Positions 10,712-30,560 of a DNA stretch of 64,000 bases are shown here, one piece after another (the first letter of the stretch is position 1; each line of letters starts with the position of its first letter). The notes under the pieces were generated by a model, which did no database searches, was not told the DNA's origin, and saw nothing but the letters and a program-made list of their open reading frames with translations. This DNA comes from Escherichia coli (lineage in GTDB: Bacteria; Pseudomonadota; Gammaproteobacteria; Enterobacterales; Enterobacteriaceae). The stretch lies in assembly GCF_011045215.1 (NCBI RefSeq), contig NZ_CP049201.1, one strand, 5' to 3'. The translations under genes and the position numbers were made by a program.

Positions 10712-10757
10712 CACTGTGTGTCACTGGTTGTCACTCTCCGTCACGGTATGCCACCAT
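10712..10757. repeat. Clustered GTCAC(T) direct repeats
   Basis: tgtcactgtgtgtcactggttgtcactctccgtcacgg: four copies within 46 bp in a noncoding stretch between tail and island. Confidence 0.6.
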
Positions 10758-10760
10758 AAG

Positions 10761-11075: not shown

Positions 11076-11084
11076 TGCCGTAAT

Positions 11085-12130: not shown

Positions 12131-12194
12131 CACCACCGTTCCGGATACAAAAAAAATCGCGAGACCTTGCCAGCCTCGCGAACGTTCATTTCAG

Positions 12195-12620: not shown

Positions 12621-12634
12621 AAATCACCACAAAA

Positions 12635-12964: not shown

Positions 12965-12974
12965 ACGATCCCCT

Positions 12975-14030
12975 TTATTTCACTTCGACGGTAACAAAGC
13001 GACCAATATCCACGGGTACTGGCTGCGGGGCGCTGTGCGTCTGCACGTATTCAATCGCCGGATCGCCCGGTACGATATAATTTTTCGGGTAGTACATCCC
13101 CTCAGAAAATCCCTCGCGTGCCGCGTCCTGATCCATGATGGCACCATAAGCAACAAGGCCTTTATTTTCGGTATTGCCGAAAACCATCATGTTTTGTTTC
13201 AGGAAATATTGCTGCTGCCCGTTTTCGTCGTCATAACGACCGGAATAAACCACGATCGCCACATCACCGAGATACCCCTTGAAGCTGACAACGCCGCCCA
13301 AATCTTTTAGCGCAAGTTCAAGTGACGAGTTTGAACCGCGACGCGTGTCCATTAGTTCGCGGAATCGACGGAACGAGCGCAAAATACGCCAGGCTTCGCC
13401 ACCCATGACGATAATATTTACCGTACCTTCGGAAAAATCAGCGTAAGCCTCAATGTCGCTTATCGGATCAAACGTTTCGGCATCCTGTTTTGACCATTCT
13501 TTCCCGCCAGCCTGCGTAATATGATTGGTTTCGGGTAATCCCCAGTCAATTTCATAACGCTCAATGCCTTCGCCCTCAATAACGTTACGGCCTGTTGTGA
13601 TGGCATTGACCGCCAGCCATTCAACACGCGCTTTGATGGCAGCAAGCTGTTTTTTCTGGCTGTCGTGAACCATTTTTACGCGGCGTAGTGCCGGGGAAGA
13701 CTGACCATTGCCGATCTGTTCTCCAGGCATGCGCATGATTGTTTTGGTGGGATCAATAACGTGTTTGGGCTTCATATAACCCGGCGTGAACGTGTTCGTT
13801 GTGAAACCTTTGTCACGCATAACCTGGCTGCCTGACATTGGAGAACAAAACGGACTCATGACCACGTTTTCAATATCCAGCGTATCAAGTGCAATATCTC
13901 TGGTGCTGAAAGTAGCGACGTTCGGAAAGAACAACGTAGTAAAGAGTGGATTAAATTTAAATTCCGGCACATCTTCGCGCCCGATATTTTTCAGTAGCGT
14001 TGGTGTGCTTACCAGTTGCGGCGCTGTCAT
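12975..14030 (-). CDS. Major capsid protein (lambda gpE-like), divergent second copy
   Basis: 351 aa; TPGYMKPKH, NITQAGGKEWSKQDAETFDP, DTRRGSNSSLELALKDLG motifs shared with lambda E and the prophage E at 23439-24467. Confidence 0.85.
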   Translation of the reverse strand: MTAPQLVSTPTLLKNIGREDVPEFKFNPLFTTLFFPNVATFSTRDIALDTLDIENVVMSPFCSPMSGSQVMRDKGFTTNTFTPGYMKPKHVIDPTKTIMRMPGEQIGNGQSSPALRRVKMVHDSQKKQLAAIKARVEWLAVNAITTGRNVIEGEGIERYEIDWGLPETNHITQAGGKEWSKQDAETFDPISDIEAYADFSEGTVNIIVMGGEAWRILRSFRRFRELMDTRRGSNSSLELALKDLGGVVSFKGYLGDVAIVVYSGRYDDENGQQQYFLKQNMMVFGNTENKGLVAYGAIMDQDAAREGFSEGMYYPKNYIVPGDPAIEYVQTHSAPQPVPVDIGRFVTVEVK

Positions 14031-14236
14031 TACTCACCCCCATGAGGCTGATTCATACCAAGCGCAGCGCGTAAATGGCTGCGTACCATCCAGCCGACTG
14101 ACGGCTTCACCAGGCACAACGGATCAAGGCCGATTTTTTTTCCTGCCTCTGCGTTCTCCTCAAAGCGCGCATTAAGTGCGGCGATAATATCGGGGCTGAT
14201 GTACACGGATACACCGCCCGGCTTCTGTGTTCCCAT
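14030..14236 (-). CDS. Hypothetical protein
   Basis: Small ORF immediately upstream of island capsid gene; no family recognised. Confidence 0.3.
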   Translation of the reverse strand: MGTQKPGGVSVYISPDIIAALNARFEENAEAGKKIGLDPLCLVKPSVGWMVRSHLRAALGMNQPHGGE

Positions 14237-14494
14237 AAATGAGATTCCTCTTTGACTAAAAAACAAACATAACGAAAAGTCATGTCATGATTTTAATTAT
14301 CGTTGCACTTTTTGCAATATAATTGACTATTGTTGCGAATAATGAAATCATTATGTCGTGGTTTTAATCCTTGTACCACAGAGTTGTTTAGCATTAATCA
14401 CGTTAGCGGCGTGAAATCCCCCGGAACCTCATCCCGGGGGATTTTTTTGCGCACAAAAAAGCCGGGAAAAATCCCGGCTTCTGTCACTCGTTGC

Positions 14495-14917
14495 TTAAAA
14501 CGGTATTTCATCCCCGTACGGATCATCATTTCCCGCCTGTTGTTTTGCTCTGCTCAGTGCATCAGTAGCCTGCCCCTGTTGGCCTTTTTTGCCGCCCGGT
14601 CGCGCCGTTCTGGCACTGATTACACTGTCTGCGATAACCTGCCAGCTCTGCCGCGTTTCGCCGTTCTGGCCTGTCCACTGGCTTACCTGCATGTTACCCG
14701 CCACGCTCACCAGTTCGCCTTTGCGGTGTTTTGCCAGTGCGTCGGCCTGTCTGCCAAACGCCAGGACGGATAACCACATCGTCGCCGTTCCGTCATCTGC
14801 CTGGCTGCACGGCAGGGGAACCGCCATACTCGCCATCGCCATTTGTGTTCCCTTGCTGGTGGTCTTTAACTGCGGGTCAGCCACCAGCCGCCCGTAAGCT
14901 GCTATCTGTGCTGTCAT
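14495..14917 (-). CDS. ssb: Single-stranded DNA-binding protein
   Basis: 140 aa with Gly/Gln-rich linker and acidic C-terminal tip ...DDPYGDEIPF typical of SSB. Confidence 0.7.
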   Translation of the reverse strand: MTAQIAAYGRLVADPQLKTTSKGTQMAMASMAVPLPCSQADDGTATMWLSVLAFGRQADALAKHRKGELVSVAGNMQVSQWTGQNGETRQSWQVIADSVISARTARPGGKKGQQGQATDALSRAKQQAGNDDPYGDEIPF

Positions 14918-15165
14918 GCTGTCTGCTCTCCGGTTTTAACGTTGATGGTTGTCACCTGTTCCGCTTCGGCAATCTCCCGCTCTGTCAGCGTGGCAAAGTT
15001 TGCCGCCGCTGTGGTCATGAATGCGCTTATCAGTTCGGGATGTGCTTTTGCGTATCCTTCTCCGGCATGGCGGTCTATTGTTCTGATTGCCACCTTTAAG
15101 GCGTGCTCTGTCATGTCTAACGCTTTATATTTTGGCGCTGTCTTATCTCTGGTTTTTTTGGTCAT
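14914..15165 (-). CDS. Hypothetical protein
   Basis: 83 aa ORF between replication gene/iterons and ssb. Confidence 0.4.
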   Translation of the reverse strand: MTKKTRDKTAPKYKALDMTEHALKVAIRTIDRHAGEGYAKAHPELISAFMTTAAANFATLTEREIAEAEQVTTINVKTGEQTA

Positions 15166-15188
15166 TTCTCACTATTCCCCACTTTTTC

Positions 15189-15367
15189 GCCTCACTTTTT
15201 AAGCTCCCAACATGATTTCCAACCTTGTTTTTTTGTGATTCTAATATGTTGTTTTTCAATGTGTTTTTTATTCCTCACTTTTGAGCCTATATACAGGTTG
15301 AAAAGTGAGGGGCGCGGTTGCTTTTTGTTCAGTTTCTGCTATCCCCTCACTTTTGTGCCTCACTTTT
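15189..15367. repeat. Iteron cluster (putative island replication origin)
   Basis: CCTCACTTTT at 15189, 15273, 15345, 15358 plus inverted copy AAAAGTGAGG at 15301, directly 3' of helicase-primase gene. Confidence 0.55.
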
Positions 15368-16782
15368 TACAGTGGGCGCACATCATCACCGTCAATAGTG
15401 ATAACGCCGTCTCTTTCCAGCTTGTACAGCCAGCGCCGAAAGTTTTTCATCTCATACCCCAGCTTTTTCATATCATCACGCAATAACGGGATAGTGCATT
15501 TATCGCCGCGCTGTGTGCGTGAACGGATACAGCCCCATAGCGCGGCGTGATTCTCCGTCTTGTTTCCGGCCTCCTCAATGCGCTCCAGTTCAACAGGTGG
15601 GCGCGGCTTATCCACTACCACCAGCGACGTGATTAACTCCTTGTCAGCGTCGATAAAAAGCTCCACCACGCGTAAATCGTATGCGGCCTCTTTCAGTTCC
15701 TCTGCGTCCTTCATTTTGGTGCAGGAGATAACCAGGGCTTCACTGTCTGCACCTTCCCGGCGAATACGGTATTCAGCGTCCAGAGATGCACGAAATGCAC
15801 TGGAACCACGCGCCCCCTTTGTTTCATCCTTGCCGGAATGGTGAACCACCAGTACCGTGGCCCCTGTGCGTCGTTTCAGTTCGTCACATCCACGGATAAA
15901 CGCCCCCATATCCCGCGCGTCATTTTCATCATTACCGCCAAAACACCGCGCCAGCGTATCCAGAATAATCATGCGTACCGGTTTACCCGTTTCCCTTTCA
16001 ACCTGGCGGGAAGCGATGACCATTTCATCAATATCAAACTGTGCTGCCGGAAAAATCGGGCGGTTTACCAGGTACAGATTTTTCACCCGTTCATCATTAA
16101 CGATTTCCCATGCTTTGATACGACGAGGGACACCAATGCCACCTTCACCGACGACATACATCACCGAACCATGCGCCACCCTGCGGCCTCCCCAGTGGCG
16201 ACCCGTGGCAACATGACACGCCCAGGAACACGCGAGGAATGATTTATAGGAACCGCTCGCGCCGTATGTGCTGCACAACGAATTAGCCGGAATCACGCCC
16301 TTAACGACATAATCAAGCTGTGTGTCGTACCCTGCAGATCCAATACTCATTGGTAGCGTGGTTTTTCGCTGGTCGTTTTTTTCTTCCTCCGGTATCTCTC
16401 CGGACCGTCTTTTCTGGCGCTCTCGTTCCAGATATTCGCGCCACCCCTCCCGCTTCTGGCTGTGCATTCCCTCAGGGTAATAATTCGCATCCCGTACACC
16501 TGCCGCTGCCAGCTTTTGCCCGATGGCATTAATATTTGACGGCTTGATGTGGCCTGCCTTGTACAGCCGGACACAATAGCGACCATCGTCGATAATTTTC
16601 AGGTCAGCCAGTTCGTCAAGATGGCTGTCTCCAAGCCATACAGGCGGAACATTGTCGCCAGCAAGTCGCCCGTCCTGCTCCTGCCATTGTTTCGCGTGCG
16701 CCCAGGCATCACTACCCGCAAAAATAATGACTTCGGTCATTTTGTCGTGCGGCTGTTTTTTTAAGTTCGGTGCCAGTTTCAT
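15367..16782 (-). CDS. Replication protein, RepA-like helicase/primase (AAA_25-type P-loop NTPase)
   Basis: 471 aa; Walker A GASGSYKS, Walker B RMIILDTLARCF, ...VLVVHHSGKDE...; N-terminal extra domain. Confidence 0.7.
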   Translation of the reverse strand: MKLAPNLKKQPHDKMTEVIIFAGSDAWAHAKQWQEQDGRLAGDNVPPVWLGDSHLDELADLKIIDDGRYCVRLYKAGHIKPSNINAIGQKLAAAGVRDANYYPEGMHSQKREGWREYLERERQKRRSGEIPEEEKNDQRKTTLPMSIGSAGYDTQLDYVVKGVIPANSLCSTYGASGSYKSFLACSWACHVATGRHWGGRRVAHGSVMYVVGEGGIGVPRRIKAWEIVNDERVKNLYLVNRPIFPAAQFDIDEMVIASRQVERETGKPVRMIILDTLARCFGGNDENDARDMGAFIRGCDELKRRTGATVLVVHHSGKDETKGARGSSAFRASLDAEYRIRREGADSEALVISCTKMKDAEELKEAAYDLRVVELFIDADKELITSLVVVDKPRPPVELERIEEAGNKTENHAALWGCIRSRTQRGDKCTIPLLRDDMKKLGYEMKNFRRWLYKLERDGVITIDGDDVRPL

Positions 16783-17078
16783 TTTTTACCCCTGAATGCG
16801 TTAATCATGTTTTTCATTTTCTGAATGTTCGCCCGTGCCTTTGCGTTGCTGGTGGGCTGTTTGCATGGCGTGGCCTGTATCAGTGAAAAATCACGCCGGA
16901 ACTGATAAACAGGCATCACGCAGTCATAGCCGTACCCATCACGGCGGTAAGTAACGCACCGTCCCGCCACGCTTTTAATCGTTACCGTGCCGCCGTAGTT
17001 ATCCCGGAAAATATCGCCGGGGCGGATTTCAGGCCGAGCGGGGCCGCTGGCAGTAAAGCCAGAAATTTTCTGTTTCAT
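16779..17078 (-). CDS. Hypothetical protein
   Basis: 99 aa ORF, start overlaps helicase-primase gene. Confidence 0.4.
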   Translation of the reverse strand: MKQKISGFTASGPARPEIRPGDIFRDNYGGTVTIKSVAGRCVTYRRDGYGYDCVMPVYQFRRDFSLIQATPCKQPTSNAKARANIQKMKNMINAFRGKK

Positions 17079-17094
17079 GGTTTTTATTCCTCTG

Positions 17095-17294
17095 CGCGGG
17101 TCTTGTTGTGTATTTCCATAACCGCGTTTAATTCATCAATAACCGGGGTTAACAGAGTGCTGAAAGCAGAAAATAAATCCCCCCCCCTGTTCGGCATGAA
17201 CTTCGGTTAATTTAATTAATACCGCTTTCATTTCCAGTGCCCGGTTTAATGCATTCTCAGAATGAATAAGAACATCGAAAGGGATTTTATCCAT
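17095..17294 (-). pseudogene. Small ORF interrupted at G9 homopolymer (frameshift or phase-variable)
   Basis: ATG at 17294 reads MDKIPFDVLIHSENALNRALEMKAVLIKLTEVHAEQGGG then poor frame; with G8 it continues ...DLFSAFSTLLTPVIDELNAVMEIHNKTRAEE to a stop 5 nt before next gene. Confidence 0.35.
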
Positions 17295-17753
17295 GGCTTA
17301 CATCCTCCGGGAATTTTCTTCTGTAACGCGCCTCTGCAACATATTCCGCATAGTCCGACGCAATATTGAGAATCTCCACACCCTCTGACCTGTAGCCACT
17401 GGTACTGATAAGAAAAAATGCGGCTTTCATCATGTCGGCAACGCATAACAACGCATCGCCTGTATGTTCCGGTGCGCCATCAAATTCCTGTTTCAGGGCA
17501 TTAAAACGATCATCACGCATAACCCCCCCCCATTTTCACAATCAGTAATCAGGATGGCTTTAGCCTCATTCAGTGCCATATCAGCACTAAATTGCATAAC
17601 AGCCAGTGAGTGAGGAACGAAATCCCCGGCATATTCTGTTTCGCTGGTGGCGTGCTTATGTGCCCTGTCCGCGATAACAGAAATATCAATCAGCGCGTGC
17701 ATCAGCGTTTTGATGGCTTCGGCGGCTGCGTCCTGACGGGTGTTATTGCACAT
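17287..17753 (-). pseudogene. Gene split by G9 homopolymer (86-aa + 77-aa ORFs; fuse with G10)
   Basis: ORF 17493-17753 ends ...CENGGGLCVMIVLMP; one extra G in the tract at 17523-17531 gives ...GGGVMRDDRFNALKQEF... continuous with ORF 17287-17520. Confidence 0.4.
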
Positions 17754-17949
17754 GGCGCACCTCCTGACGAATACGGGCGGCGAATACCATCACGCAGCCA
17801 TCAGGAGATTGCTGACGCGCTTCCTGTTCGTTGGTGGCCTCAATGGTAATCACGCGCGGTTGTGCCGTGCTCAGGGCGATAAAACGCCAGATGTATTTAT
17901 TCAGGTTGTGCGAGTCCCGCCCTTGCGGGTGTGTGGTATGATTTAACAT
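17743..17949 (-). CDS. Small protein, first gene of leftward island operon (Cro-like position)
   Basis: 68 codons (MLNHTTHPQGRD...RHVQ) with RBS GAGGT; divergent from RHH gene across operator region; not in ORF track as a separate ORF. Confidence 0.4.
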   Translation of the reverse strand: MLNHTTHPQGRDSHNLNKYIWRFIALSTAQPRVITIEATNEQEARQQSPDGCVMVFAARIRQEVRHVQ

Positions 17950-18088
17950 AGCTACCTCGATAATCTTGCTATCGTTGGTGGTTAGACGCCCTGCATGTGT
18001 ACCACCACTGCGGGGCGTTGCGTTTTTTGATGTGCACGTGTTAAGGTGTACACCTAACGAACCAAAACATAACGCCATAGGTGTACAC
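17950..18088. promoter_or_regulatory. Divergent promoter/operator region of island
   Basis: Perfect palindrome GGTGTACACC at 18045-18054 and GGTGTACAC at 18080-18088 just before the RHH start; CACGTG at 18033. Confidence 0.5.
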
Positions 18089-18283
18089 ATGTCAACAGTT
18101 ATTAAGCGCGATAAAAAACAAAAAGGCACAGGAAAGGCCCCACCATTCCATATGCGTATAGTCCCTGAATTGAAGGAGCAGTTTGATAACGAAGCCAGTA
18201 ACGATGGAGTAAGTCTTGCCAACTGGCTTAAAGAGTTAGGGCGCAAAGAACTGCTACGGCGCGGAATTGAACCAAAGGGATAA
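18089..18283 (+). CDS. Ribbon-helix-helix-like DNA-binding protein (putative island repressor or antitoxin)
   Basis: 64 aa from MSTVIKRDKKQKG...; basic N-terminus, start right after operator palindromes. Confidence 0.45.
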   Translation: MSTVIKRDKKQKGTGKAPPFHMRIVPELKEQFDNEASNDGVSLANWLKELGRKELLRRGIEPKG

Positions 18284-18292
18284 CTATCACTA

Positions 18293-18823
18293 ATGTCGCA
18301 ACCAGAGGAGTTGCGACTCCGAAGATTACATAGGAAATTAATGATTATGGGATTCGTCATTTTCATTGCGATCGTAATTTTATCCATTTACGTTCTTACC
18401 AAATTATTTATTTCAGAAAATTCACACGACAAAATTAGAGCCGAGGCATCCAGAAGAATTGCACAAGAAGAGGCCGAACGGGCTAAGTTGTATGAAGAGA
18501 GAAAGGAATCATCTGATAATCCTGTTAATAAACAAAAACGAATAACAACACACGAAGATCATTTTTATATGGATATTCATGGTGGTCACAAATATATATG
18601 TGTTGATGCTAAGTTAGTTTTTGAATATGCAAATTTAAAACACAACTATTTTCTTCACGCCTCTCACTATTTCCCTGAGTTAGAGTATGTTTATGGAAAA
18701 AACGAACATGGGAAAATAGTTAGAGTAGATTTGTACGATAAAAAAATTCAAGCTATTAACCCCGATACTGGCGAAAAAATACCTGGTGTGAGACGTTATC
18801 TACGACAGCACAAGATAAAATAG
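18293..18823 (+). CDS. Hypothetical membrane-anchored protein (AT-rich cargo gene)
   Basis: 176 aa; N-terminal TM helix MIMGFVIFIAIVILSIYVLTKLF; markedly AT-rich; followed by hairpin+T-run terminators. Confidence 0.45.
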   Translation: MSQPEELRLRRLHRKLMIMGFVIFIAIVILSIYVLTKLFISENSHDKIRAEASRRIAQEEAERAKLYEERKESSDNPVNKQKRITTHEDHFYMDIHGGHKYICVDAKLVFEYANLKHNYFLHASHYFPELEYVYGKNEHGKIVRVDLYDKKIQAINPDTGEKIPGVRRYLRQHKIK

Positions 18824-19238
18824 CCCACCGGAATTTTTTTCCGGTTACGCTTTGCCCACCAGCCGCAAATGTGGCATTGTTGGCTATGCTCATGCGTTGG
18901 GGATAACGCGCAATTAGTGTTGAAGGGCCACCGTAGCGGGTGGCCTTTGTTTTGCCTGTTATCCGGCAATTGTGGCGCTTCGCCACACGGTTGATATAAT
19001 CCTCCTGCACAGATTCATTTTTTGCGCAGCAGGTTAATTGTTCGCAAGGGCGCTCCGGCAACTGGGCGCTTTTTGTTTTTACCCACCAGCACAATAAAAA
19101 TCTTCATTTTCCATTTTTGCAAAATTTCATGCTTTCCGGACGACTGGCCATATGTCATTTTTTAGCAGAAGATTTTGCCTTGCTGGTGGGTAGCTTCCCG
19201 GTTAACACGATGTACCGTATAATCAGCACCGCACGCGG

Positions 19239-19820
19239 TTACTGAATACGCTCACCAAAGTAAAACTCAGGCTGATATTCACGTATCAGCCTTTTTTCTT
19301 CTTCCTCCAGCTCACGCTTTTTGCGCTTACATGCCTGTAGTTCCCTCCCCTTCTCGCTGGCACTTATCTGGTATTGCTCTTTGCGACGGGAAAAATCCTG
19401 TAATGCGCCCCACGGGATACCATAAGCCCCCGTTTTTCTGATACCCGGTATCACATTTCTGAATACCCAGTTACTGAAACGATGGGCGAACGTGCCAGGA
19501 GTAGCAGCTTTTCGACTTCTGGCAATCAGCTTGTAAAAACCAGATTCAGAAACGACGCTATGATTTGGATTTCCGCGAATACCGTAAGTTAAAGTTACGG
19601 TATTACTTTCATCATCATCCAGAGCTTGCAACGCCATGCGTGAATTAGTCAGTTCCAGCGCAGCGCAGACATCCTTTGCAACAAACCACGGATCGCCGTT
19701 CAGATACACCACGCGAACGTTCACACTATCAAAGCGCAGAACGACCAGATCACGAATATCACAGAATTTTTTCACTGGACGTGCGTCACCCTTGCCAGTC
19801 ACGGCAATATTTTTATTCAT
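19239..19820 (-). CDS. Bro-N domain protein (putative antirepressor)
   Basis: 193 aa; N-terminal ...GDPWFVAKDVCAALEL... Bro-N-like; coiled-coil C-terminus. Confidence 0.55.
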   Translation of the reverse strand: MNKNIAVTGKGDARPVKKFCDIRDLVVLRFDSVNVRVVYLNGDPWFVAKDVCAALELTNSRMALQALDDDESNTVTLTYGIRGNPNHSVVSESGFYKLIARSRKAATPGTFAHRFSNWVFRNVIPGIRKTGAYGIPWGALQDFSRRKEQYQISASEKGRELQACKRKKRELEEEEKRLIREYQPEFYFGERIQ

Positions 19821-19870
19821 CGCTTTTTACCTCACATACAAAAAACCCCGCATTGCGCGGGGTATATCAA

Positions 19871-20080
19871 TCATTGACGATATTCATTAGCTTGTTTTCG
19901 TTGTCTTTCCAGCCACGATGCAACATCATCACGATGCCATGCGTTGCGTCGCCCAATCTTAAAGGGGCGTGGAAATTTATTTTTTTCATCATTCATGAAA
20001 GCGTAAAATGCACTCATTGCACCGTAGCGAAGCTCTGCCATCACGTCTTTGGTAAATAGAATATTGCCGTTAGTGCTCAT
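19871..20080 (-). CDS. AlpA-family transcriptional regulator/excisionase-like
   Basis: 69 aa, ...RRNAWHRDDVASWLE... typical AlpA/Xis HTH; immediately downstream of P4-type int. Confidence 0.75.
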   Translation of the reverse strand: MSTNGNILFTKDVMAELRYGAMSAFYAFMNDEKNKFPRPFKIGRRNAWHRDDVASWLERQRKQANEYRQ

Positions 20081-20086
20081 ATTGCC

Positions 20087-21319
20087 TCACATATTCACTA
20101 CTTTTAGCCCCTGATGACCACCAGAACGACGGATAATTCCCTTTCTGGCATCATCAACAAAATCACCAATCCATTGCATCATGATCTTACGTTGCTCAAA
20201 ATATTTTGAGCGATTATAAATATCACGAATAGCATCGCCGCTTTTATGGGCTAATGCTGCCTCAATAACATCTGGGTTAAACCCTTCTTCGTTGAGTAAC
20301 GTACTCCACATAGCCCGGAATCCGTGGGCAGTTGCAATACCATAAAATTGTCCATCTTTGAAACACTTATGACGCAACACGCTTGATATAGCTTTCCCCG
20401 GATTCTTTGGAGAAAAAAATATATAGCTACCACATTTTATTTTATTCATTTCATTTAAAATATCCACGGCTTGCCGTGAAAGCGGAACTACGTGTTCACG
20501 TCCACACTTCATTCTTTCAGGGGGAATTGTCCAGATACAATTTTCTAAATCAATTTCCTCCCATTTTGCCTCCCTTGCTTCACATGGTCGTACCATAGTG
20601 AAAATCTGGAACAAAAGAGAGCATCTTATAGAGATATTACTTGTAGTATCCCACCAGTTCAAAAATTCTGATAACAGTTCAACTGGTAATGCCTTTAATG
20701 GGGTATGTTTTTTTGTTGCAAATGCATTTCTTATTGTTGATAGCGGGTTATTTTTAATTACTCCAGAGTTAACACAGTAATTCATTATTTCATTAATTTT
20801 TGAAATAATTTTATCCAATACAGAATTACGATCAGAAAATTGATTAAGCAATGGTATGACCACAGGCGCGGTCATATCATGTATGTACACATTTCCAAAT
20901 ACAGGGATTATATGTCTGTTCAATAACTCTTCTATTGTCTGTAAAGTCGACAGTCGCAAATCACCTTTTTTCTTAAAATTAAACCATTCAATTGCAATAG
21001 CACCAAACGTCTGTAAGTGCTTTCTTTTAGCCTCGAGTCGTTTTTCTGCCCGGTATGATAACGGATCTATATCCCGTGCCAACAATCTGCGCAGATTATC
21101 GCGTTCTTCTCTGGCTTCAACCAGCGTGAAATCGGGGTATCGCCCTATAGTGTATGTTTGCCGCTTCTTCGTAAAAGGTTGTACATAACGAAAACGCCAC
21201 GATTTACTACCGGCTTTTGACACATAAAGCAAAAGCCCAAACCCATCATATAGAGCGTAATCTTTCTCTCGTGGCCTGGCGCTTTTTACCTCTGATGCAG
21301 TAAGAGGCTTCACCGACAT
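20087..21319 (-). CDS. Tyrosine integrase, P4/CP4-57 type
   Basis: N-terminus MSVKPLTASEVKSARPREKDYALYDGFGLLLYVSKAGSKSWRFRY typical of P4-like integrases; C-terminal catalytic domain ...AHGFRAMWSTLLNE... Confidence 0.9.
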   Translation of the reverse strand: MSVKPLTASEVKSARPREKDYALYDGFGLLLYVSKAGSKSWRFRYVQPFTKKRQTYTIGRYPDFTLVEAREERDNLRRLLARDIDPLSYRAEKRLEAKRKHLQTFGAIAIEWFNFKKKGDLRLSTLQTIEELLNRHIIPVFGNVYIHDMTAPVVIPLLNQFSDRNSVLDKIISKINEIMNYCVNSGVIKNNPLSTIRNAFATKKHTPLKALPVELLSEFLNWWDTTSNISIRCSLLFQIFTMVRPCEAREAKWEEIDLENCIWTIPPERMKCGREHVVPLSRQAVDILNEMNKIKCGSYIFFSPKNPGKAISSVLRHKCFKDGQFYGIATAHGFRAMWSTLLNEEGFNPDVIEAALAHKSGDAIRDIYNRSKYFEQRKIMMQWIGDFVDDARKGIIRRSGGHQGLKVVNM

Positions 21320-21433
21320 ACAAGCACTCCAATACAAATTTTTTCTAGTCCATGCGCTGGTTCCTTTTGCCAGAATACTGGCGATAAAAAAGCGAAAAAC
21401 AAGGAACAATGCACACAATGAAAAAACCGCAAC

Positions 21434-22617: not shown

Positions 22618-23005
22618 AACGTTTACTCGGTCGGACAGGGGCGGCGGGTGTACTTCTTCCGGGTTCTCCCCGCGCAAGAGTAATGGTAATCACACCATGA
22701 CCCGCAGTGCCTGACTCATCCCAGCCAGGATCGACCACCTGGTAGGGTTCGCCGTGGATCATGACCCTGTCATATTTTTTCAGTCCGGCAACCCATGCGC
22801 TCCGGGTAAATAACACCGGTGCAGTATCACGAATTTCGCCGCTGCCAGTGTTCATCCCGGTGTTATCTGCCGGGGCATCAAAAACAGCACGGATTTTTCT
22901 TTCCGTGCCGCCCGGATATATGCTGATTTCCGTCCCCATCGTATCCAGGATGATGTCATCCGCATCACTCATGGCCTGATCGAACAGATTATCGGACATC
23001 ATCAC
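22598..23005 (-). CDS. Head-tail connector protein (lambda FII-like)
   Basis: N-terminus MMMSDNLFDQA... resembles gpFII; follows FI-like gene. Confidence 0.55.
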   Translation of the reverse strand: MMMSDNLFDQAMSDADDIILDTMGTEISIYPGGTERKIRAVFDAPADNTGMNTGSGEIRDTAPVLFTRSAWVAGLKKYDRVMIHGEPYQVVDPGWDESGTAGHGVITITLARGEPGRSTPAAPVRPSKRYDSQRA

Positions 23006-23388
23006 TCCCGGATTTTTTCTGCCAGACCATCCGCCAGCAACGCAGGAACTGTGGCTTCATTAACCAGCACAACACTGGAGGCCCGGGCGAACATCAACAT
23101 TTTGCCCGTCACCGCATCACGGGACGGCATATGTGCCGTTTTCAGCATGCGCACCCGAACGAGTCCCCGCTCAGAATACACCTCATTACGGGCATCCCCT
23201 CCGGATGCATCACGCTGTTCATCATGCACATCATCCTGTTCTGTCCCTTCCCCATCGAATCCGGCGGCCTCCTCTTCCCATTCCGCCAGGCGCTGTTCAA
23301 GATCGGCTTTTGAACCTGAAATATCTGCTTCACGCCCCAGAATCTCTGCCAGCTCCTGCAGGCGTTCAGTCATCTGCTCTTTTGTCAT
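23002..23388 (-). CDS. DNA packaging protein (lambda FI-like)
   Basis: Start MTKEQMTERLQELAE...; acidic linker; position after E as in lambda. Confidence 0.6.
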   Translation of the reverse strand: MTKEQMTERLQELAEILGREADISGSKADLEQRLAEWEEEAAGFDGEGTEQDDVHDEQRDASGGDARNEVYSERGLVRVRMLKTAHMPSRDAVTGKMLMFARASSVVLVNEATVPALLADGLAEKIRE

Positions 23389-23438
23389 CACATTTCTCCC
23401 GTGCGATAAAGAAAAAGGCGGGAATATCCCGCCTGACC

Positions 23439-24467
23439 TTATTTCACCTGAACCACCACAAACGCGTCCGGATCCGGCAACACCATCAACGGCGCAGACT
23501 GCGTCATGGTATATTCGCACCCCGGGTCCCCCACCTCTAACCAGTGTTTCGGATAACGAATTGCAGAGGTGATCCCTTCACTCAGCGCCTGGTTATCCTG
23601 GATTGCGCCATAACAACGGACACCCTCCACCTGAGTGTTTCCAAGAATCAGTGTGCCTTCCGGCAGATAACGCTGCTCATCCCCGTTTTCATCAACATAC
23701 GTTGTTTTCGCCACCATGATGGCCAGATCACCGTAATAACCTTTAAAAGAAACCACGGAACCCAGATCTTTCAGCGCGGTTTCCAGTTCAGATTTTGAGC
23801 CACGGCGGGTATCCAGTTTTTCACGAAACAGCTTAAAACCGTTCAGCATACGCCAGACAGTACCGTCCATAATCGCAATATTGATGGTACCGGAAGCAAA
23901 ATCGCAGTACGCATCCAGATCATGCGTCGGATCAAAGGTGTCAGCATTCTGTTTTGACCATTCGCGTCCCCCTGCCTGCGTTATGTTATTGGCGGCAGAA
24001 CGTCCAAAATCCACTTCCACCGTCTCAAACTGTTCACCGCTCATGGTGTACTTACCCTGCAGAACAGCGCTGACCGCCTGCATTTCTTCCACCTGCACAA
24101 TCGCCTGCTCTTCCTGTTTCAGGTTATCAGTCAGAATACGCAGGCGACGGTAGGCCGGGTCATTAAGACGGGCCGGATCTTCCCCCGGAAGACGCTCCAC
24201 CGCCTGCTGATAATCCAGCCGGTGTTTTGGTTTAACATAGCCGGGGCGTAACACGCGGGTTTCACCACCACGACTGCGCAGTACCTTACCTGACACAACC
24301 GGAGACACATATGCCGCAACCGGTGTTTTTCCGGTGATTTTATCCAGCATCACTTCCTGAGTATGGAAAGTGACCGTACGACGAAAAAACAGCTCCAGAA
24401 ACAGCGCACGGAATTTCACTTTCTGCTCGGTGTAGCCGAGCAACTGACGCGTGGTAAATAACCCCAT
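23439..24467 (-). CDS. Major capsid protein (lambda gpE-like)
   Basis: ...AAYVSPVVSGKVLRSRGG...PGYVKPKH...VQVEEMQAVSAVLQGKYTMSGE...DTRRGSKSELETALKDLG very close to lambda E as recalled. Confidence 0.9.
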   Translation of the reverse strand: MGLFTTRQLLGYTEQKVKFRALFLELFFRRTVTFHTQEVMLDKITGKTPVAAYVSPVVSGKVLRSRGGETRVLRPGYVKPKHRLDYQQAVERLPGEDPARLNDPAYRRLRILTDNLKQEEQAIVQVEEMQAVSAVLQGKYTMSGEQFETVEVDFGRSAANNITQAGGREWSKQNADTFDPTHDLDAYCDFASGTINIAIMDGTVWRMLNGFKLFREKLDTRRGSKSELETALKDLGSVVSFKGYYGDLAIMVAKTTYVDENGDEQRYLPEGTLILGNTQVEGVRCYGAIQDNQALSEGITSAIRYPKHWLEVGDPGCEYTMTQSAPLMVLPDPDAFVVVQVK

Positions 24468-24537
24468 AATTGACTTTCCTTTAAAAACACAAACGAACCG
24501 CATCACGACCCGTTTTTTTCAGTTAATCACTTCACCA

Positions 24538-24903
24538 TCAGGCGTGGCTGATGGCACTTCCCACAAACGCGTTGGCTTTTTTCACCGCATCCACCGAATC
24601 CGGCCAGACCAGCGATTCGGTGGCAAACGTACCGCTTTTGTAGTACGTCAGTGTGGGCTCGGTCCCGGCCAGCGCCAGTGCCAGTACCCCCACAGCCGTT
24701 CCGGCTTTCTGACCATCCCATGCCACCAGTTTTCCGCTGGCGTCATCCAGCATCAGTGGCGTCAGTGAAGGCGTGGCAACACTGATACCGCTGGTACCTG
24801 TTGCGGTATACACCGGATCGCTTCCGGCAAAAATGCGCCCGTCCGCACGCTTTTCTGTGGTGGTTTTAATCATTTTCTCAGTCTCCTGATTTATCTGAAT
24901 CAC
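24538..24903 (-). CDS. Head decoration protein (lambda gpD-like)
   Basis: ...TPLMLDDASGKLVAWDG...YYKSGTFATESLVWPD...GSAISHA matches gpD. Confidence 0.85.
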   Translation of the reverse strand: MIQINQETEKMIKTTTEKRADGRIFAGSDPVYTATGTSGISVATPSLTPLMLDDASGKLVAWDGQKAGTAVGVLALALAGTEPTLTYYKSGTFATESLVWPDSVDAVKKANAFVGSAISHA

Positions 24904-24913
24904 GGATCCCCGC

Positions 24914-26395
24914 TTACGGCATACTCATCAGCAGTTCTTCTTCCCCGTTCCCGGCAGTTCCGCCACCGGAAACGGCACTGGCGGCATGCTGTGCCATGAA
25001 GCGCTCAAAAAGTGTTACCTGTGACGGTTGCGATACTGATGGCGCAGCTGCCAGCAGTGTTTTCGCCTGGTCCACTGTCATTCCCGGCTGTTCAGCCAGC
25101 GCCTGTGCCAGTTTTTCGCGTCCTTTTGCTTCCGGAAGTGCCATTATCTGCTCGCCGGTACTTGCCGCACCGGTTGCCGGTGCCGCTGCCAGTAACATTT
25201 TCGCCTGTTCCACCGTCATTCCCGGCTGTTCAGCCAGCGTCCGTGCCAGTTGTTCACGCCCTTTTGCTTCCGGAAGTGCCACAATCTGATCGCCAGTACT
25301 GTCAGTACCGGCAACCGGTGCCGCTGCCAGTAACGTTTTCGCCTGCTCAACTGACATTCCCTGCTGACCTGCCAGCATCTGCGCCAGTTTTTCGCGTCCT
25401 TTCGCCTCCTGACAATTCAGGATCCCCATCACGCGCTGATTTTCCTGGGACACCGCTTCAGCAACGGTGAGATTTTTTGTTGTCATCGTATTCTCCTGTG
25501 TAACAGAGTCGTTCAGAGCAGAAACCATTACATCAACGGCATCTGCAGCATTAATCAGTTGATCAGCCAGGCCTGTATCAATGCCTGCCTGACCGTCATA
25601 AACGGCAGCCTCGGTATTCATCACCACCTCTGAACTCAGCCCCGTATAAAGTGCCACCTTGTCGACAAACATCCGGCGGGCCTCATCAATACGGCGCTGA
25701 AAATCCGCACGCACACCTGTCGGCAACGCCTGAATACTGTTGCCGTCAACCTTGTGCTGCCCGGAGTAAATCAGCGTGATATCCACCCCTTCCTGTGCCA
25801 GTTGTTTCTCATAACTGATGTGCGCCATCATCACACCAATCGAACCAATTTTTGCCGTCTGCGTGACCAGCCGACGCGTACAGGCTGCCGCCAGCAACAT
25901 GGCGGCTGAACAGGCCATGTCATTACACAGCGCCCACACGGGCTTCTGTTCCCGCAGACGGTAAATCATGTCAGCACAGTCAAACGCCCCGGCAGCCTGA
26001 CCGCCAGGACTGTCGATATCCAGCAAAATACCGCGCACATCCGGATCATTCACCGCCAGCTGAAGACGGGCGGTAAGACCGTCATAGCCTGTCATGCCAG
26101 AGTAAGGCCTCAGGGTACCCATTTTATGTACCAGCGTGCCGCTCACCGGCAGAATGGCGATGCCATTTTTCACCTGATAGCATTTTTCAGGACGCCGGCC
26201 ACCAGACATATAGTCCGCCACCGCCAGTTGCATACCGTCGGCATCAAGCTGAACATCCAGTTGCGGAACGGAAAGACTGCCCGCCCCCATCTCCTTACCC
26301 AGCGCGCAAAAGAAAACCCGCGCATAGGCGGGTTCCAGTAAAAGCGGTTCATTAAATGCCATGGCGGCAATATGCGATAAATTACGACGCATCAC
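24914..26395 (-). CDS. Head maturation protease/scaffold (lambda gpC-Nu3-like, S49 peptidase family)
   Basis: 493 aa; SppA/ClpP-like core ...GILLDIDSPGGQAAG...; C-terminal repeated scaffold-like segment. Confidence 0.85.
   Translation of the reverse strand: MMRRNLSHIAAMAFNEPLLLEPAYARVFFCALGKEMGAGSLSVPQLDVQLDADGMQLAVADYMSGGRRPEKCYQVKNGIAILPVSGTLVHKMGTLRPYSGMTGYDGLTARLQLAVNDPDVRGILLDIDSPGGQAAGAFDCADMIYRLREQKPVWALCNDMACSAAMLLAAACTRRLVTQTAKIGSIGVMMAHISYEKQLAQEGVDITLIYSGQHKVDGNSIQALPTGVRADFQRRIDEARRMFVDKVALYTGLSSEVVMNTEAAVYDGQAGIDTGLADQLINAADAVDVMVSALNDSVTQENTMTTKNLTVAEAVSQENQRVMGILNCQEAKGREKLAQMLAGQQGMSVEQAKTLLAAAPVAGTDSTGDQIVALPEAKGREQLARTLAEQPGMTVEQAKMLLAAAPATGAASTGEQIMALPEAKGREKLAQALAEQPGMTVDQAKTLLAAAPSVSQPSQVTLFERFMAQHAASAVSGGGTAGNGEEELLMSMP
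25030..25390 (-). repeat. Three in-frame tandem repeats of about 108 bp within the protease/scaffold gene
   Basis: Protein repeats ...GMTVEQAKxLLAAAP...TGxQIxALPEAKGREKLAxxLAEQP... x3; DNA repeats read directly. Confidence 0.6.
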
Positions 26396-27953
26396 CTTTT
26401 TCTCCCGTTGTCTGACGGATCTGCTGCTGAAACGCGTCCTTTATCCAGACCGGACGCGGAAGACCGGCAGCCTGTCGCTCCTGAGTTTCCCGTAGCTGCT
26501 GGCGGAAAATCTCCTGATAGTCATCCCCCATCAGGGCCAGCTCTTTCTCGTATGTACTCAGGCCGCCTTCAATGCGCATCACCGCTTCCTGCACTTCCTT
26601 AAGGCCATCAATCGCCATACGACCGGCACCAATCCACTCGGCACGGCACCACCCGGAACGGGCCTCCCAGAATGAGAAACGGGATTTCGGCGGACGGATC
26701 ACACCACGAATAAGGGCTTCCTCCAGCCAGCAGGCAAACATCTGTGACGCCAGGCGACTGGCCACAAATTTTCGTTTTCCCATAAAATACCGCCACGACT
26801 CATTGGCGGATGCCCTGGCACTGGAATAACTGACCTGTGAATAATCACGGGAAAGCTGCTCATAGGACACGCCCAGTCCGGCAGCTATGTAACGTAACAG
26901 CGCCTTTTCCAGTTCAGAAAAACCATTATCCGCATTCTGGGCTGTCTGCAGATTCAGTGAATCTCCCGGGTAAAGATGCGGAATACGGACCCCGCCCAGT
27001 TTTACCGTATTGGTGGCGTAATAACGCGCGTAGCCTTTCATGATGGTGTTCAGGGGATTTTTACCTCCATCTCCCACTCCGGCGATATATTCAAACGCTT
27101 TTTCCGAATCCAGTGTGGATTCAATCGTCGCGGCGTACATCGCCCGCACCACCGCCGACTGCAGTTGCGTGGCCTGCAGTGTGTCGAGCATCTTGAGACG
27201 CTCCATGACGGAATAAAACTGGTTGGCCCCGCGCGTCTGCCCGTCTTCCTGTGGCTGAAACACATGGATCATTCCCGGTCTCCCGGAAGGCAGTGTTGCC
27301 GTAATTCGTGTCCATTTACTGACACCGTAGCCGGGCCAGCCATCATCCTGAACATGGTAGGCCAGCGCTTTTCCGTGTCGGTTTATTTCCACCCCGGCAC
27401 GCATAAAACGATCGCCGGTACCATAACCGGGTGTACTGACACGCTTCGGGCTGATGGTTTTGAATTTCGTCCGGAATAATGACGTGGATTCCGCATCCCA
27501 TACGGGCTGGACAAAAATTTCACCGTTAAACGTATGGACCCCCACCCCTTCACGAATGAATTCGGTAAACGAACGACGTCCTTCCACATCCATCGTACCA
27601 AACACCGGATCGCAGTATTCCATCCACGCAGCCTCAACATCTTCAATAAAAGCATGTGAATCTGCTTCCGACATCCCCAGCCAGCGCCAGTTGGGACGGT
27701 AACTCAGACGAAACATGTGCCCGACAATATGATCCTTATGAATTTCCACTGCATTCGATGCAATACCGTTGTTACGGACCAGATCATCCGCGCGGGCGTT
27801 ACCCAGATGAATGGAAGGTAAGAGCGCCACGTCGGCACTTTCCGGTGCAGGCAGCCATTCTGCCATTTGCCCACCGAACCCGGAACCACCACCAGAATAT
27901 CCCATGCTTTGCCGTAAAGGCTGCCCATGAATATCCACCAGTTCCCCGTTCAC
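26382..27953 (-). CDS. Portal protein (lambda gpB-like)
   Basis: 523 aa, position between W and C. Confidence 0.9.
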   Translation of the reverse strand: MNGELVDIHGQPLRQSMGYSGGGSGFGGQMAEWLPAPESADVALLPSIHLGNARADDLVRNNGIASNAVEIHKDHIVGHMFRLSYRPNWRWLGMSEADSHAFIEDVEAAWMEYCDPVFGTMDVEGRRSFTEFIREGVGVHTFNGEIFVQPVWDAESTSLFRTKFKTISPKRVSTPGYGTGDRFMRAGVEINRHGKALAYHVQDDGWPGYGVSKWTRITATLPSGRPGMIHVFQPQEDGQTRGANQFYSVMERLKMLDTLQATQLQSAVVRAMYAATIESTLDSEKAFEYIAGVGDGGKNPLNTIMKGYARYYATNTVKLGGVRIPHLYPGDSLNLQTAQNADNGFSELEKALLRYIAAGLGVSYEQLSRDYSQVSYSSARASANESWRYFMGKRKFVASRLASQMFACWLEEALIRGVIRPPKSRFSFWEARSGWCRAEWIGAGRMAIDGLKEVQEAVMRIEGGLSTYEKELALMGDDYQEIFRQQLRETQERQAAGLPRPVWIKDAFQQQIRQTTGEKGDAS

Positions 27954-28162: not shown

Positions 28163-30115
28163 TTATCCTCCACTCAGTGCAGCCGCGATCTCTTCCATGC
28201 TCATATCATCCTCATCCTGCTCATCTCTTCGTGCCCTCGCCAGCGCTTCAAGGTCCAGTTGCCACCGCTGTACCGAAACGCGCAGGGCGGCATAAGCATA
28301 TACCAGGCAGTCGAGGGCTTCGTTGCGTCGCCCTTTTTTATCCCACAGCAGTTTCACCCTGCCGTTAACCACCTTTTCCACCAGTTCTTCCGCTACGATT
28401 TGACGCGCCTCTTCTTCCGAAAAAATGTCCGGGTTATCCGGAAAACGGAAGGTATACGGGGCTGCTTCACTTGCAGAAACCACCGGCAGGGCAAAACGCG
28501 CATACAGCATTTCCTTGACGGTATCGGAGCCCACCTCACACAAAAACACACCACGCTGGTTGCGCTTTTTGGGCATGGTGATCACCGGCTTGCCATACAC
28601 CGATGCCCCTTTTATGGGAAGCACAAAAAAAGTGCCGTGTTTCCTGGAACGCTGATACACAATGTCCTGGTCGATACCACCGGTATCCCAGCAGACGCGG
28701 GAAATGGAAATTTCAGTACCGTCAGCATGGCGGTATTTTTTCCGGATCACCGCATCAACACGTTTAAGGGTGTCCTCGTCCTCCGGTCGCCCCATGATAA
28801 TTTGCTTGTCAATCAGAAAGGCTTCTTCGCCGGGAGCCCAGCCCCAGACATAAATTTCATAGCGATCTTTCTGGGAGTCGATCCCGGCAGTCAGGTAAAC
28901 CACCCGCAGGGGAACCTGCGCATCATAGTGGCAGACTTTTTCCAGCAACAACTCAAAGCTCAGTTTTTCTGCCACGGCCTCTTCATAGGGCTCCCCGAGC
29001 GTGGTGTTAATAAACGTCTTGACACCGTTCGGATCCTTCAGCGCATCCAGCCAGTCATAAACAATCTGTACCCAGGTGGTGAACGGACTGTACGCTGTCC
29101 ACACGTGGTACGTGATTGAGCGCGGTGGCGGCATCTCCTCATCACCGGCGCTGTAAAATGCCAGGCCGTCACGCGTCCACATCCCGGTATTGTCACAAAT
29201 CCAGCGCCCGTCGGTCTGGTCAAGCTCCGACTGCCGGATCACACAGCCATTATGTTCACACAGGTAATACACCGTTTCCGGTTTACCCTTCTCCCATTTC
29301 AGGCCAAAGGTTGTCGCATCATCGCCAAACTTAAGATACTGGGCTTCACCACAATGAGGGCATGGCACATAAAACCGCATAAAATGTGCAGATTCGTTCG
29401 CGGCTTTTTCAATCTGACAGGAACCTTTAATTTTTGGCGTTGAGCCGCGTATGGATTTAGGCCATACCGAACCTTCGATACGTTTATCGCCAAGCAGCGT
29501 TGGCGAGCCTTCCTTTTCCACATCCGGTTCAAACGAGGAGAGTTCGTCATAGCAGACCACATCCACTGATTTTTCACGGTAGTTTTTAGCAGCGGCACCC
29601 CCCAGGCACCAGAACCCCACGCCGGAGGAGAAACGCTTCAGGGTGAGTGTGTTGTCACGATGTTTTCTGCCCAGCCATGGCGATAACGCTTTAAGGCTGG
29701 GGACATCCCGGAGCGTTGCTTCCACATGCGCTTTCATAAAATCTTCAGCTGCGGAATCTGTCGGCTGGAAGAGCAGGCTGTTACGGGATTTATGCTCAAT
29801 AAAATACCCGACCACGCCCAGCAGCATTTTGGTGTAACCCACACGCGCCGATTTAATCAGATTAACAGTGCGGATCCTGTCGTGCCCCATGCTGTTCATA
29901 ATGGCGACCTGGAACGGCAGTGTTTTCCATTCCCCATCACCGTATGACGATTCTTTAGGCAGATAATAATTTTGATCAGCCCATTCAACTGCCGTCATCG
30001 GTACAACCCTGACCAGAGGCTGCAGCGCAACTGAAACAGCAGCCATCATATTATTCAGCTGTAGTTCGGATATATTCATCGAGTAACTCCGGCAATTTAT
30101 CCCCTGTCCGCGCAC
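28163..30115 (-). CDS. Terminase large subunit (lambda gpA-like)
   Basis: 650 aa; ATPase and nuclease domains, lambda-A length, overlaps terS end. Confidence 0.92.
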   Translation of the reverse strand: MRGQGINCRSYSMNISELQLNNMMAAVSVALQPLVRVVPMTAVEWADQNYYLPKESSYGDGEWKTLPFQVAIMNSMGHDRIRTVNLIKSARVGYTKMLLGVVGYFIEHKSRNSLLFQPTDSAAEDFMKAHVEATLRDVPSLKALSPWLGRKHRDNTLTLKRFSSGVGFWCLGGAAAKNYREKSVDVVCYDELSSFEPDVEKEGSPTLLGDKRIEGSVWPKSIRGSTPKIKGSCQIEKAANESAHFMRFYVPCPHCGEAQYLKFGDDATTFGLKWEKGKPETVYYLCEHNGCVIRQSELDQTDGRWICDNTGMWTRDGLAFYSAGDEEMPPPRSITYHVWTAYSPFTTWVQIVYDWLDALKDPNGVKTFINTTLGEPYEEAVAEKLSFELLLEKVCHYDAQVPLRVVYLTAGIDSQKDRYEIYVWGWAPGEEAFLIDKQIIMGRPEDEDTLKRVDAVIRKKYRHADGTEISISRVCWDTGGIDQDIVYQRSRKHGTFFVLPIKGASVYGKPVITMPKKRNQRGVFLCEVGSDTVKEMLYARFALPVVSASEAAPYTFRFPDNPDIFSEEEARQIVAEELVEKVVNGRVKLLWDKKGRRNEALDCLVYAYAALRVSVQRWQLDLEALARARRDEQDEDDMSMEEIAAALSGG

Positions 30116-30560
30116 ACTGATTCGCGCCTTTTGCGATAAGGGTTTTCAGATAATCGATATGACGCGGGGTTAAATCCGGGAACTGTCGCTGCATGGATAA
30201 AGGAATGGAATCAAGCGTACTGGACAATGCCATCGCCAGTTTGCTGAGAGCGAAAACGCAGAACCCAGAATCAATGAGCTTGCCTTCGGTTACCTGATTT
30301 TTTAATTGCTGTGCTATTGCCTGTTCTTCAGTCAATTTCCATCTGGCGATAAGTAATTTTTCTTCGTAATCGCTATTTCCATCGTCATCAGTATCGCTTC
30401 TTCCTTTGCGTTTAAGGTATGAAATATAAAAATATCGCCAGGCATCAATATCGTATTCACCACGCTTTCGATTTTTTGGCGCTCCCGGGTGCTTCTGAAG
30501 ATCCCGCAACCAGCGTTCAGTTATACCAAGATGCTCGGCTACCTCCGCCTGCGTTGCCAT
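30051..30560 (-). CDS. Terminase small subunit (Nu1-like C-terminal half, divergent N-terminal HTH)
   Basis: 169 aa; C-terminal ...GKLIDSGFCVFALSKL...LSMQRQFPDLTPRHIDYL... similar to island TerS and lambda Nu1. Confidence 0.8.
   Translation of the reverse strand: MATQAEVAEHLGITERWLRDLQKHPGAPKNRKRGEYDIDAWRYFYISYLKRKGRSDTDDDGNSDYEEKLLIARWKLTEEQAIAQQLKNQVTEGKLIDSGFCVFALSKLAMALSSTLDSIPLSMQRQFPDLTPRHIDYLKTLIAKGANQCARTGDKLPELLDEYIRTTAE

Follow-up and report, generated by a model that had tools for sequence, protein, structure and literature searches.

What is the element repeated in tandem within the protease/scaffold gene of this Escherichia coli prophage, how does it relate to repeats in other phages, and what might its copy number do? 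An earlier note, made from the letters alone, had described three tandem in-frame repeats of about 108 bp in the Nu3-like scaffold portion of a gpC homolog, and had suggested that changes in their number would alter scaffold length, could influence capsid size, and could provide homology for recombination between the phage and a nearby satellite island. Here "the window" is the entire 64,000-nucleotide stretch of contig NZ_CP049201.1 (assembly GCF_011045215.1) that was analyzed, and all coordinates refer to it. The gene and its surroundings comprise the following features.

24914 to 26392, minus strand: coding sequence of the gpC-like prohead protease/scaffold, 492 aa from the ATG at 26392.
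25505 to 26392, minus strand: S49 (SppA-like) protease domain, aa 1-296, the N-terminal two thirds of the protein.
25493 to 25497, minus strand: Shine-Dalgarno sequence AGGAG, read from the sequence, 6 nt upstream of an internal ATG at 25486.
24914 to 25486, minus strand: nested Nu3-like scaffold coding sequence, predicted 190 aa (MTTKNLTV...), in frame and with the protease C-terminus in common.
26382 to 27953: lambda-family portal gene (Phage_portal_2, PHROGs).
24538 to 24903: gene for a D-like decoration protein (HDPD, PHROGs).
23439 to 24506: gene for an E-like major capsid protein (Phage_cap_E, PHROGs).
28163 to 30115: large terminase, assigned from its translation alone.
30051 to 30560: Nu1-type small terminase.

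The mechanically called open reading frame runs from 24914 to 26395 on the minus strand (493 codons) and begins with a GTG at 26395, one codon before the ATG at 26392 that is the likely start codon of the protease gene. The exact 492-residue product is present in NCBI as WP_164475802.1 ("S49 family peptidase [Escherichia coli]"), encoded on one contig of 5,409,430 bp. Pfam places Peptidase_S49 (PF01343) at aa 147-291 (E = 3.7e-33), SppA structures in the PDB are matched with an E value of 2e-17, and the PHROGs assignment is phrog_53 (head maturation protease, E = 2e-204). Residues S163 and K215 are invariant in 58 homologues and are, by analogy, candidates for the Ser/Lys dyad of the protease. 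The C-terminal 191 residues match PHROG families for head scaffolding and capsid assembly in three stretches. At the place homologous to the internal start, all eight genes compared carry GGAG or GAGG with a Met (among them lambda, N15, phage 21, and Gifsy-1), and the N15 and phage 21 records annotate this position as the start of the scaffold. The gene is flanked by the lambda-family portal on one side and by the D-like and E-like genes on the other. By its S49 domain, its portal, D, and E neighbors, and its internal Shine-Dalgarno sequence and ATG, the gene is a lambda C/Nu3-type protease with a predicted nested scaffold, and the repeats fall in the part common to both products; on this point the gpC homology and Nu3-like placement proposed earlier hold. 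The prophage adjoins ompW.

Structure and family databases cover the two parts of the protein differently. Foldseek searches with the full-length model returned SppA with a probability of 1.00 and only protease/crotonase-like folds overall; no solved structure was found for the scaffold part, structure matches being restricted to the protease domain (SppA, ClpP), and no family in Pfam or NCBIfam covers the repeat unit. Matches to T2SSK, HTH_15, and HU-like families were weak, near or below the Pfam cut-offs, and were not used.

Within the C-terminal third of the S49 prohead protease we delimited three repeat units and the tail that follows them.

25286 to 25423, minus strand: repeat unit 1, aa 325-370 of the 493-aa ORF, ILNCQEAKGREKLAQMLAGQQGMSVEQAKTLLAAAP followed by the linker VAGTDSTGDQ.
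25148 to 25285, minus strand: repeat unit 2, aa 371-416, IVALPEAKGREQLARTLAEQPGMTVEQAKMLLAAAP followed by the linker ATGAASTGEQ.
25010 to 25147, minus strand: repeat unit 3, aa 417-462, with its core at 25040-25147, IMALPEAKGREKLAQALAEQPGMTVDQAKTLLAAAP.
24917 to 25039, minus strand: conserved C-terminal tail, SVSQPSQVTLFERFMAQHAASAVSGGGTAGNGEEELLMSMP, common to the protease and the scaffold.

The period of the array is 138 bp (46 aa), with three in-frame tandem copies at 25010-25423 on the minus strand, an interval that contains the 25030-25390 given earlier. Tandem Repeats Finder, the check that had been suggested, confirms the array and returns a period of 138 rather than 108 (25060-25409, 2.5 copies, 83% matches, without indels, score 490), and a second repeat search recovers three copies of 138 nt spaced by 138 and 138. 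When 25010-25423 is compared with itself at an offset of 138, 201 of 276 positions are identical (73%), against at most 136 matches (mean, 117) for the best of all offsets in 1,000 shuffled arrays; the tandem in-frame repeat is real and far above chance. Self-matching at an offset of 108 is 27%, which is chance level, and a 108-bp period is thereby ruled out. The earlier description was therefore right as to three tandem units in frame and wrong as to their period: each unit consists of a conserved 36-aa (108-bp) core followed by a variable linker of about 10 aa, and it was this core that the "108 bp / 36 aa" had measured. The core consensus is I-x-x-x-x-EAKGRE-x-LA-x-x-LA-x-Q-x-GM[ST]V-x-QAK-x-LLAAAP, and the Nu3 core motif ENxR[IV]MGIL.C.EA.GRE...GM[ST]V..A..[IL]LAAAP is found in the window units. 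The reading frame is open across the whole array.

Each unit is predicted to be an independent three-helix mini-domain of about 40 residues. The AlphaFold2 model of the full protein (58-sequence alignment) has a modest mean pLDDT of 64.6, within which the units reach 83 to 88, the linkers are lower, and the tail is low; a single unit modeled from an 81-sequence alignment gives a pLDDT of 84 and three short helices. The model thus agrees with the reiterated 36-aa helical module that had been proposed.

This repeat has a precedent in GenBank record M81255, which covers the head operon of phage 21: three repeat_region features in gene 6 are named "Tri1 box," "Tri box," and "Tri3 box," measure 104, 111, and 114 bp, begin at intervals of 140 and 141 bp, and are noted as "function unknown; putative." Their translations (QEAKGREQLATMLAGQQGMSVEQARAILAAAAPQ, IMVCEEANGREQLAATLAAMPEMTVEKARPILAASPQ, and IMALDEAKGAEAQAEQLAACPGMTVESARAVLAAGSGK) show the same motif as the window repeats. 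The record is said to stem from Smith & Feiss 1993 (Gene 126:1). Literature searches turned up no paper on the phage 21 boxes or on tandem repeats in scaffolds, and so the precedent rests on the annotation in M81255. A hidden Markov model of the unit scores 58 to 81 bits on every unit of the window, phage 21, Gifsy-1, and lambda; window units score 74 to 76 bits (unit 1, 75.8), the phage 21 boxes 59 to 68, and the lambda unit 68.5, rising to 74.0 for lambda with a broader model built on the 81-sequence alignment. In tblastn the Nu3 part of the window protein matches phage 21 and Gifsy-1 over 522 to 579 nt (87 to 99% of the Nu3 part), with identities of 54.6% to phage 21 (over 87% of the Nu3 part) and 56.5% to Gifsy-1. 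On the strength of sequence comparison, the window repeats are shown to be homologous to the Tri boxes of phage 21 gene 6 and to the single unit of lambda.

The likeness to phage 21 extends to the arrangement of the genes: its head-tail preconnector gp5 contains the nested scaffold gp6, operon position and nested start both match, and its three boxes of 104 to 114 bp at 140/141 bp parallel the 108-bp cores of the window at 138/138 bp. The two nevertheless belong to different sequence lineages; the phage 21 units are more diverged from one another, whereas arrays of the window lineage have three to five copies and linkers rich in Gly, Thr, and Ser. Lambda gpC/gpNu3 shares the S49 protease, the in-frame nested scaffold with a common C-terminus, the C-terminal tail, and the conserved core (...ENSRIMGILNCEEAHGREEQARVLAETPGMTV..ARRILAAAP), but it has a single unit preceded by a low-complexity segment of about 50 aa, and its Nu3 has 131 aa compared with 190 in the window. 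STM2605 of Gifsy-1, a lambda gpC homologue, has three units, spaced as in the window, and the tail; it differs in having about 56% identity in the scaffold part and in that its repeats are unannotated in its record. The tail is kept in phage 21, in Gifsy-1, and in the protein of the satellite island described below.

Among relatives, unit number and protein length are as follows.

Lambda and N15: one unit; proteins of 439 and 447 aa.
Burkholderia AH2, Klebsiella SAKp11, and Vibrio ST2-1pr: one unit; 442, 446, and 417 aa.
Phage 21, Gifsy-1, and PhiR12_2: three units; 501, 498, and 501 aa.
The window: three units; 492 aa.
The five nearest complete E. coli prophages (88-96% DNA identity): four units; 535-538 aa.

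Copy number, which the earlier note had asked to see compared among related prophages, thus varies from one to five. Of the 120 best protein clusters, 61 have three units and 40 have four, compared with 15 that have two and 2 that have five; one cluster that resembled a six-unit array (P0150) instead carries an internal duplication of 156 aa. With a profile of the unit, 2,241 representatives at 50% identity were recovered as carrying it, and the best 150 of these comprise 137 with one unit, 10 with two, and 3 with three. Because 137 of those 150 have one unit, the single unit is, as far as these profile matches go, the common state in the family, and arrays are by the same measure derived; they are found mainly in enterobacterial prophages of the 21/Gifsy type, and Bradyrhizobium has them independently.

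The window array also bears marks of how copy number changes. At the DNA level its unit 1 is 96% identical to unit 1 of the four-copy relatives, and its unit 3 is orthologous to their unit 4 (93-96%). Unit 2 is 93-96% identical to both unit 2 and unit 3 of the relatives and, read base by base, alternates between them as a mosaic. A separate three-unit allele (P0136; 492 aa, 96% identical, 196 member sequences) has a clean hybrid of units 2 and 3, and some two-unit proteins (e.g., P0155) begin with a hybrid of phage 21 units 1 and 2. Two adjacent units are identical in the five-unit proteins, and units 1 and 2 of a Cronobacter protein are nearly so. Mosaic units, hybrid units, and identical neighbors are what unequal homologous recombination and gene conversion inside an array leave behind, and they show that these processes change the copy number.

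A mosaic unit 2 could instead mean that the true locus has four units, of which one was collapsed during assembly. All of the closest complete E. coli genomes have four units, the relatives' units 2 and 3 are closely similar to each other as well as to window unit 2, and many database entries for the gene cover only part of the protein, perhaps because contigs end at the array. We consider such a collapse highly improbable, however: the exact protein comes from a single 5.41-Mb contig, the three-unit allele with 196 members is independent of it, and the array is in frame, with its other units only 62-75% identical in DNA. Loss of frame and assembly error had been named in advance as the findings that would undo the repeats; the repeats are in frame, and the single contig makes assembly error unlikely.

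The units are under purifying selection at the protein level, as estimated from substitution ratios. For the cores of unit 1 and the last unit pooled, omega is 0.065 between the window and E. coli E41 and 0.134 between the window and TK3046; for the last-unit cores against E41 it is 0.05 at a dS of 0.84, and for the protease domain against the same two strains it is 0.09-0.10. Paralogous unit cores within the window give 0.20-0.34, and linker 1 against linker 2 gives 0.42, over 10 codons only. Proteins from Burkholderia, Xylella, Vibrio, and Bradyrhizobium still have the motif, which persists in distant proteobacterial phages whose DNA can no longer be aligned; it is this retention, together with the low omega values, that places selection on the protein.

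These values bear on whether the copy number has any function. If a single unit were all that is needed, the extra copies would be passengers of replication slippage or unequal crossing-over and the length of the array a neutral polymorphism, in keeping with the prevalence of the single unit across the family and with frequent gain and loss, as seen in the identical adjacent units of P0111, P0113, and P0148. Functionless copies would, however, be expected to decay or to acquire frameshifts, whereas the motif is kept in all units and not in the first alone, the last unit has the low omega given above, and phage 21 and Gifsy-1 each conserve all three units despite about 45% divergence between units. 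We therefore regard neutral extra copies as unlikely.

The window also contains a satellite island, at about 10.4-21.4 kb, that encodes a related protein.

12195 to 12620, minus strand: satellite-island scaffold-like protein, 141 aa, with two degenerate units and a similar C-terminal tail.

This protein aligns to window units 2 and 3 plus the tail with 35% identity (E = 1e-11; tblastn, BLASTP) and matches phrog_1999 and phrog_53, which bears out the proposal that the island scaffold resembles one or two units of the phage gene. Its exact sequence is present on 74 contigs. Compared with the phage array, the island units are without the E-A-K-G-R-E signature, and the tail is kept. The island further encodes an integrase, a Bro-N-type anti-repressor-like protein, a primase/helicase, an SSB, an E-like capsid protein that is 46% identical to that of the phage, a D-like decoration protein, and a full-length Nu1-type small terminase (Pfam Phage_Nu1, E = 2e-68). 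Its position is within the late region of the prophage, with neck/tail-completion genes on one side and the P2-type baseplate gene V on the other, an arrangement common to three complete E. coli genomes. A search for att repeats at the island ends gave no convincing long direct repeats.

EcCICFT073 is a characterized lambda-mobilized PICI for which capsid and decoration genes are mentioned (PMC6092414). The order at its right end (major capsid, decoration, small ORF, Nu1/TerS-like) is that of the window island; the major capsid proteins are 65% identical and the scaffold-like ORFs 30% identical. EcCICFT073 has, at the equivalent place, a homologous two-unit scaffold-like ORF. The only annotation of the scaffold-like ORF is "hypothetical." By its gene content (integrase, primase/helicase, and the block of capsid, decoration, small ORF, and Nu1-like genes), the window island appears to fit an EcCICFT073-type PICI.

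A homologous gene in the island raises the possibility that the repeats act as DNA or RNA, either as a regulatory element or by serving both phage and island as a substrate for recombination, and the phage 21 record does list them as DNA "boxes" of unknown function. The longest exact identity between the island and phage scaffold genes is 13 nt (15 nt between the capsid genes), too little to make homologous exchange through the repeats plausible, so that the recombination suggested by the earlier note is not borne out. Nor does the region offer a regulatory element: nothing comes near any Rfam gathering score, no promoter-like sites are present, and the antisense ORFs in the array match no Pfam family, which leaves no RNA family, promoter, or credible antisense gene there. 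Orthologous units, moreover, differ mainly by synonymous changes. A nucleic acid role is on these grounds extremely improbable.

We consider it probable that the repeats are three copies of the core mini-domain of lambda-Nu3-type scaffolds, serving as contact modules of which one to five are tolerated. The C-terminal segment with the units would be made twice, once as the protease tail and once as the nested Nu3-like scaffold, and the units would fold separately, joined by flexible linkers rich in Ala, Gly, and Thr and followed by the conserved tail. In procapsid assembly and in the scaffold core, the units may act as equivalent contact modules whose partner could be the shell protein, the portal, or another scaffold molecule, and the protease would be carried into the procapsid by the shared scaffold segment of unit(s) and tail. 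Extra copies could increase valency or reach by providing several equivalent contacts per flexible chain, and one to five copies would be tolerated with the capsid type unchanged. A possible analogue is the helix-turn-helix domain at the C-terminus of the P22 scaffolding protein gp8, a small helical domain that binds coat protein. In lambda, Nu3 is required for portal incorporation, and interactions with B, C, E, and itself have been reported (PMC3224144).

The biochemical role of the units is probably that of an assembly contact. Since the nearly invariant E-A-x-G-R-E signature is gone from the island versions but the tail remains in them, the shell-binding element may be the C-terminal tail rather than the unit. 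If copy number itself is selectively neutral, as it might be, the idea of valency explains nothing further.

An alternative to valency is length. The nested scaffold has 131 aa in lambda, 190 in the window, and 236 in the four-copy relatives, so its length does follow unit number, as had been expected, and could act as a ruler by which unit number sets scaffold length and hence capsid size. Scaffold-driven changes in capsid size have precedents in satellites, namely, SaPI CpmA/CpmB and P4 Sid. Genome sizes nonetheless argue against such a ruler. Phages with one unit have genomes of 33.6 to 59.3 kb (ST2-1pr, 33.6; N15, 46.4; lambda, 48.5; AH2, 58.1; SAKp11, 59.3), a range that encloses the 42.9 to 51.9 kb of the three-unit phages (phage 21, Gifsy-1, and PhiR12_2), and the portal, D, and E genes are homologous in all of them. 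Alleles with three, four, and five units also sit in prophage head modules that are otherwise 88-96% identical. With unit number unrelated to genome size and the head gene set unchanged, the suggested influence on capsid size is unsupported, and a length ruler is very unlikely; we retain the reading of the units as contact modules.

The window array is a further instance of a repeat already annotated in phage 21 and is ordinary for 21/Gifsy-type lambdoid head modules; it adds no new kind of system. The array may also account for truncated "S49 family peptidase, partial" entries from short-read assemblies, if contigs break there. Besides capsid and decoration proteins of their own, EcCICFT073-type islands encode a Nu3 paralogue of two units with a helper-type tail. 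One idea set in this context, which we regard as a long shot, is that the number of Nu3 core modules is an evolvable valency knob in the conflict between helper and satellite. If so, additional units would give the helper scaffold and protease an edge in nucleating procapsids or recruiting the portal, and adaptation rather than neutral change would lie behind the rapid gain and loss of units (one to five) among enterobacterial prophages. The "hypothetical" gene beside the capsid and decoration genes of the satellite island can now be read as a Nu3-like scaffold. For the family as a whole, the core of Nu3-type scaffolds emerges as a discrete, independently predicted mini-domain, and the natural series from one to five copies is usable for asking what the Nu3 core domain binds.

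An EcCICFT073-like satellite island lies at window positions 10400-21420, within the late operon of the prophage, flanked on one side by neck and tail-completion genes and on the other by the baseplate gene V. It encodes a single-stranded DNA-binding protein (SSB) together with the following:

20087-21418, integrase
15367-16782, primase/helicase
12975-14030, E-like major capsid protein
12635-12964, D-like decoration gene
12195-12620, scaffold-like gene
11311-11895, Nu1-type small terminase

No portal, protease, or large terminase gene was seen in the island (10400-21420). Its placement in the prophage late operon is common to only three complete E. coli genomes; many other genomes carry the island core at other places.

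At the right end of EcCICFT073 itself (L016:2084-2497, E. coli CFT073), a 137-aa "hypothetical protein" is encoded after the capsid and decoration genes. This protein is a two-unit homologue of the Nu3-like scaffold, with 30% identity to the island protein of the window (E = 3e-09). Neither island version has the E-A-K-G-R-E signature found in the phage units, but the F-E-x-[FY]-M-x-x-H-S-P tail is retained in both. A Nu1-family small terminase is encoded twice in the window, in the island (11311-11895) and in the prophage (30051-30560); the island protein aligns over the whole of Pfam Phage_Nu1 (model positions 1-162 of 164; E = 2e-68), and the prophage protein over the C-terminal half only (E = 6e-20). 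Between the island's protein and its EcCICFT073 counterpart, which is 144 aa long, only the N-terminal HTH is shared.

At 23002-23520, the mechanical ORF and the end of the major capsid gene overlap. Since its match to the DNA-packaging chaperone FI is confined to residues 45-169, its true start is probably the internal Met, where the annotation of E. coli SA53-3 places it.

Two long antisense ORFs, both Pro/Val/Ala-rich, cross the repeat array of the protease/scaffold gene:

25012-25470, + strand, 152 aa
24996-25289, + strand, 97 aa

Neither matched a Pfam family, and they look like by-products of repeated G+C-rich coding sequence. Very many database entries for the protease/scaffold gene (among the relatives P0001-P0062) are "S49 family peptidase, partial" fragments, an abundance that breaks in short-read contigs at the array could explain; the 138-aa entries P0042, P0044, and P0047 represent the scaffold in frameshifted form.

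Two further relatives of this gene are rearranged. In P0149 (610 aa), from a related E. coli prophage, the protease/scaffold is naturally fused in frame to baseplate protein V, an arrangement that corresponds to window 25040-25147 joined to 9572-10354, and the junction falls inside repeat unit 3, between …EQPGMTV and IGDVLSPPLPW…. The fusion implies deletion of D, E, FI, the neck genes, and the intervening genes in that prophage. P0150 (657 aa), on a 5.59-Mb E. coli contig, is a phage 21-type gene with an internal 156-aa duplication running from the end of the protease domain past the nested start and across ∼2.3 units; because the duplication includes the nested start, two internal scaffold starts are predicted to be present.
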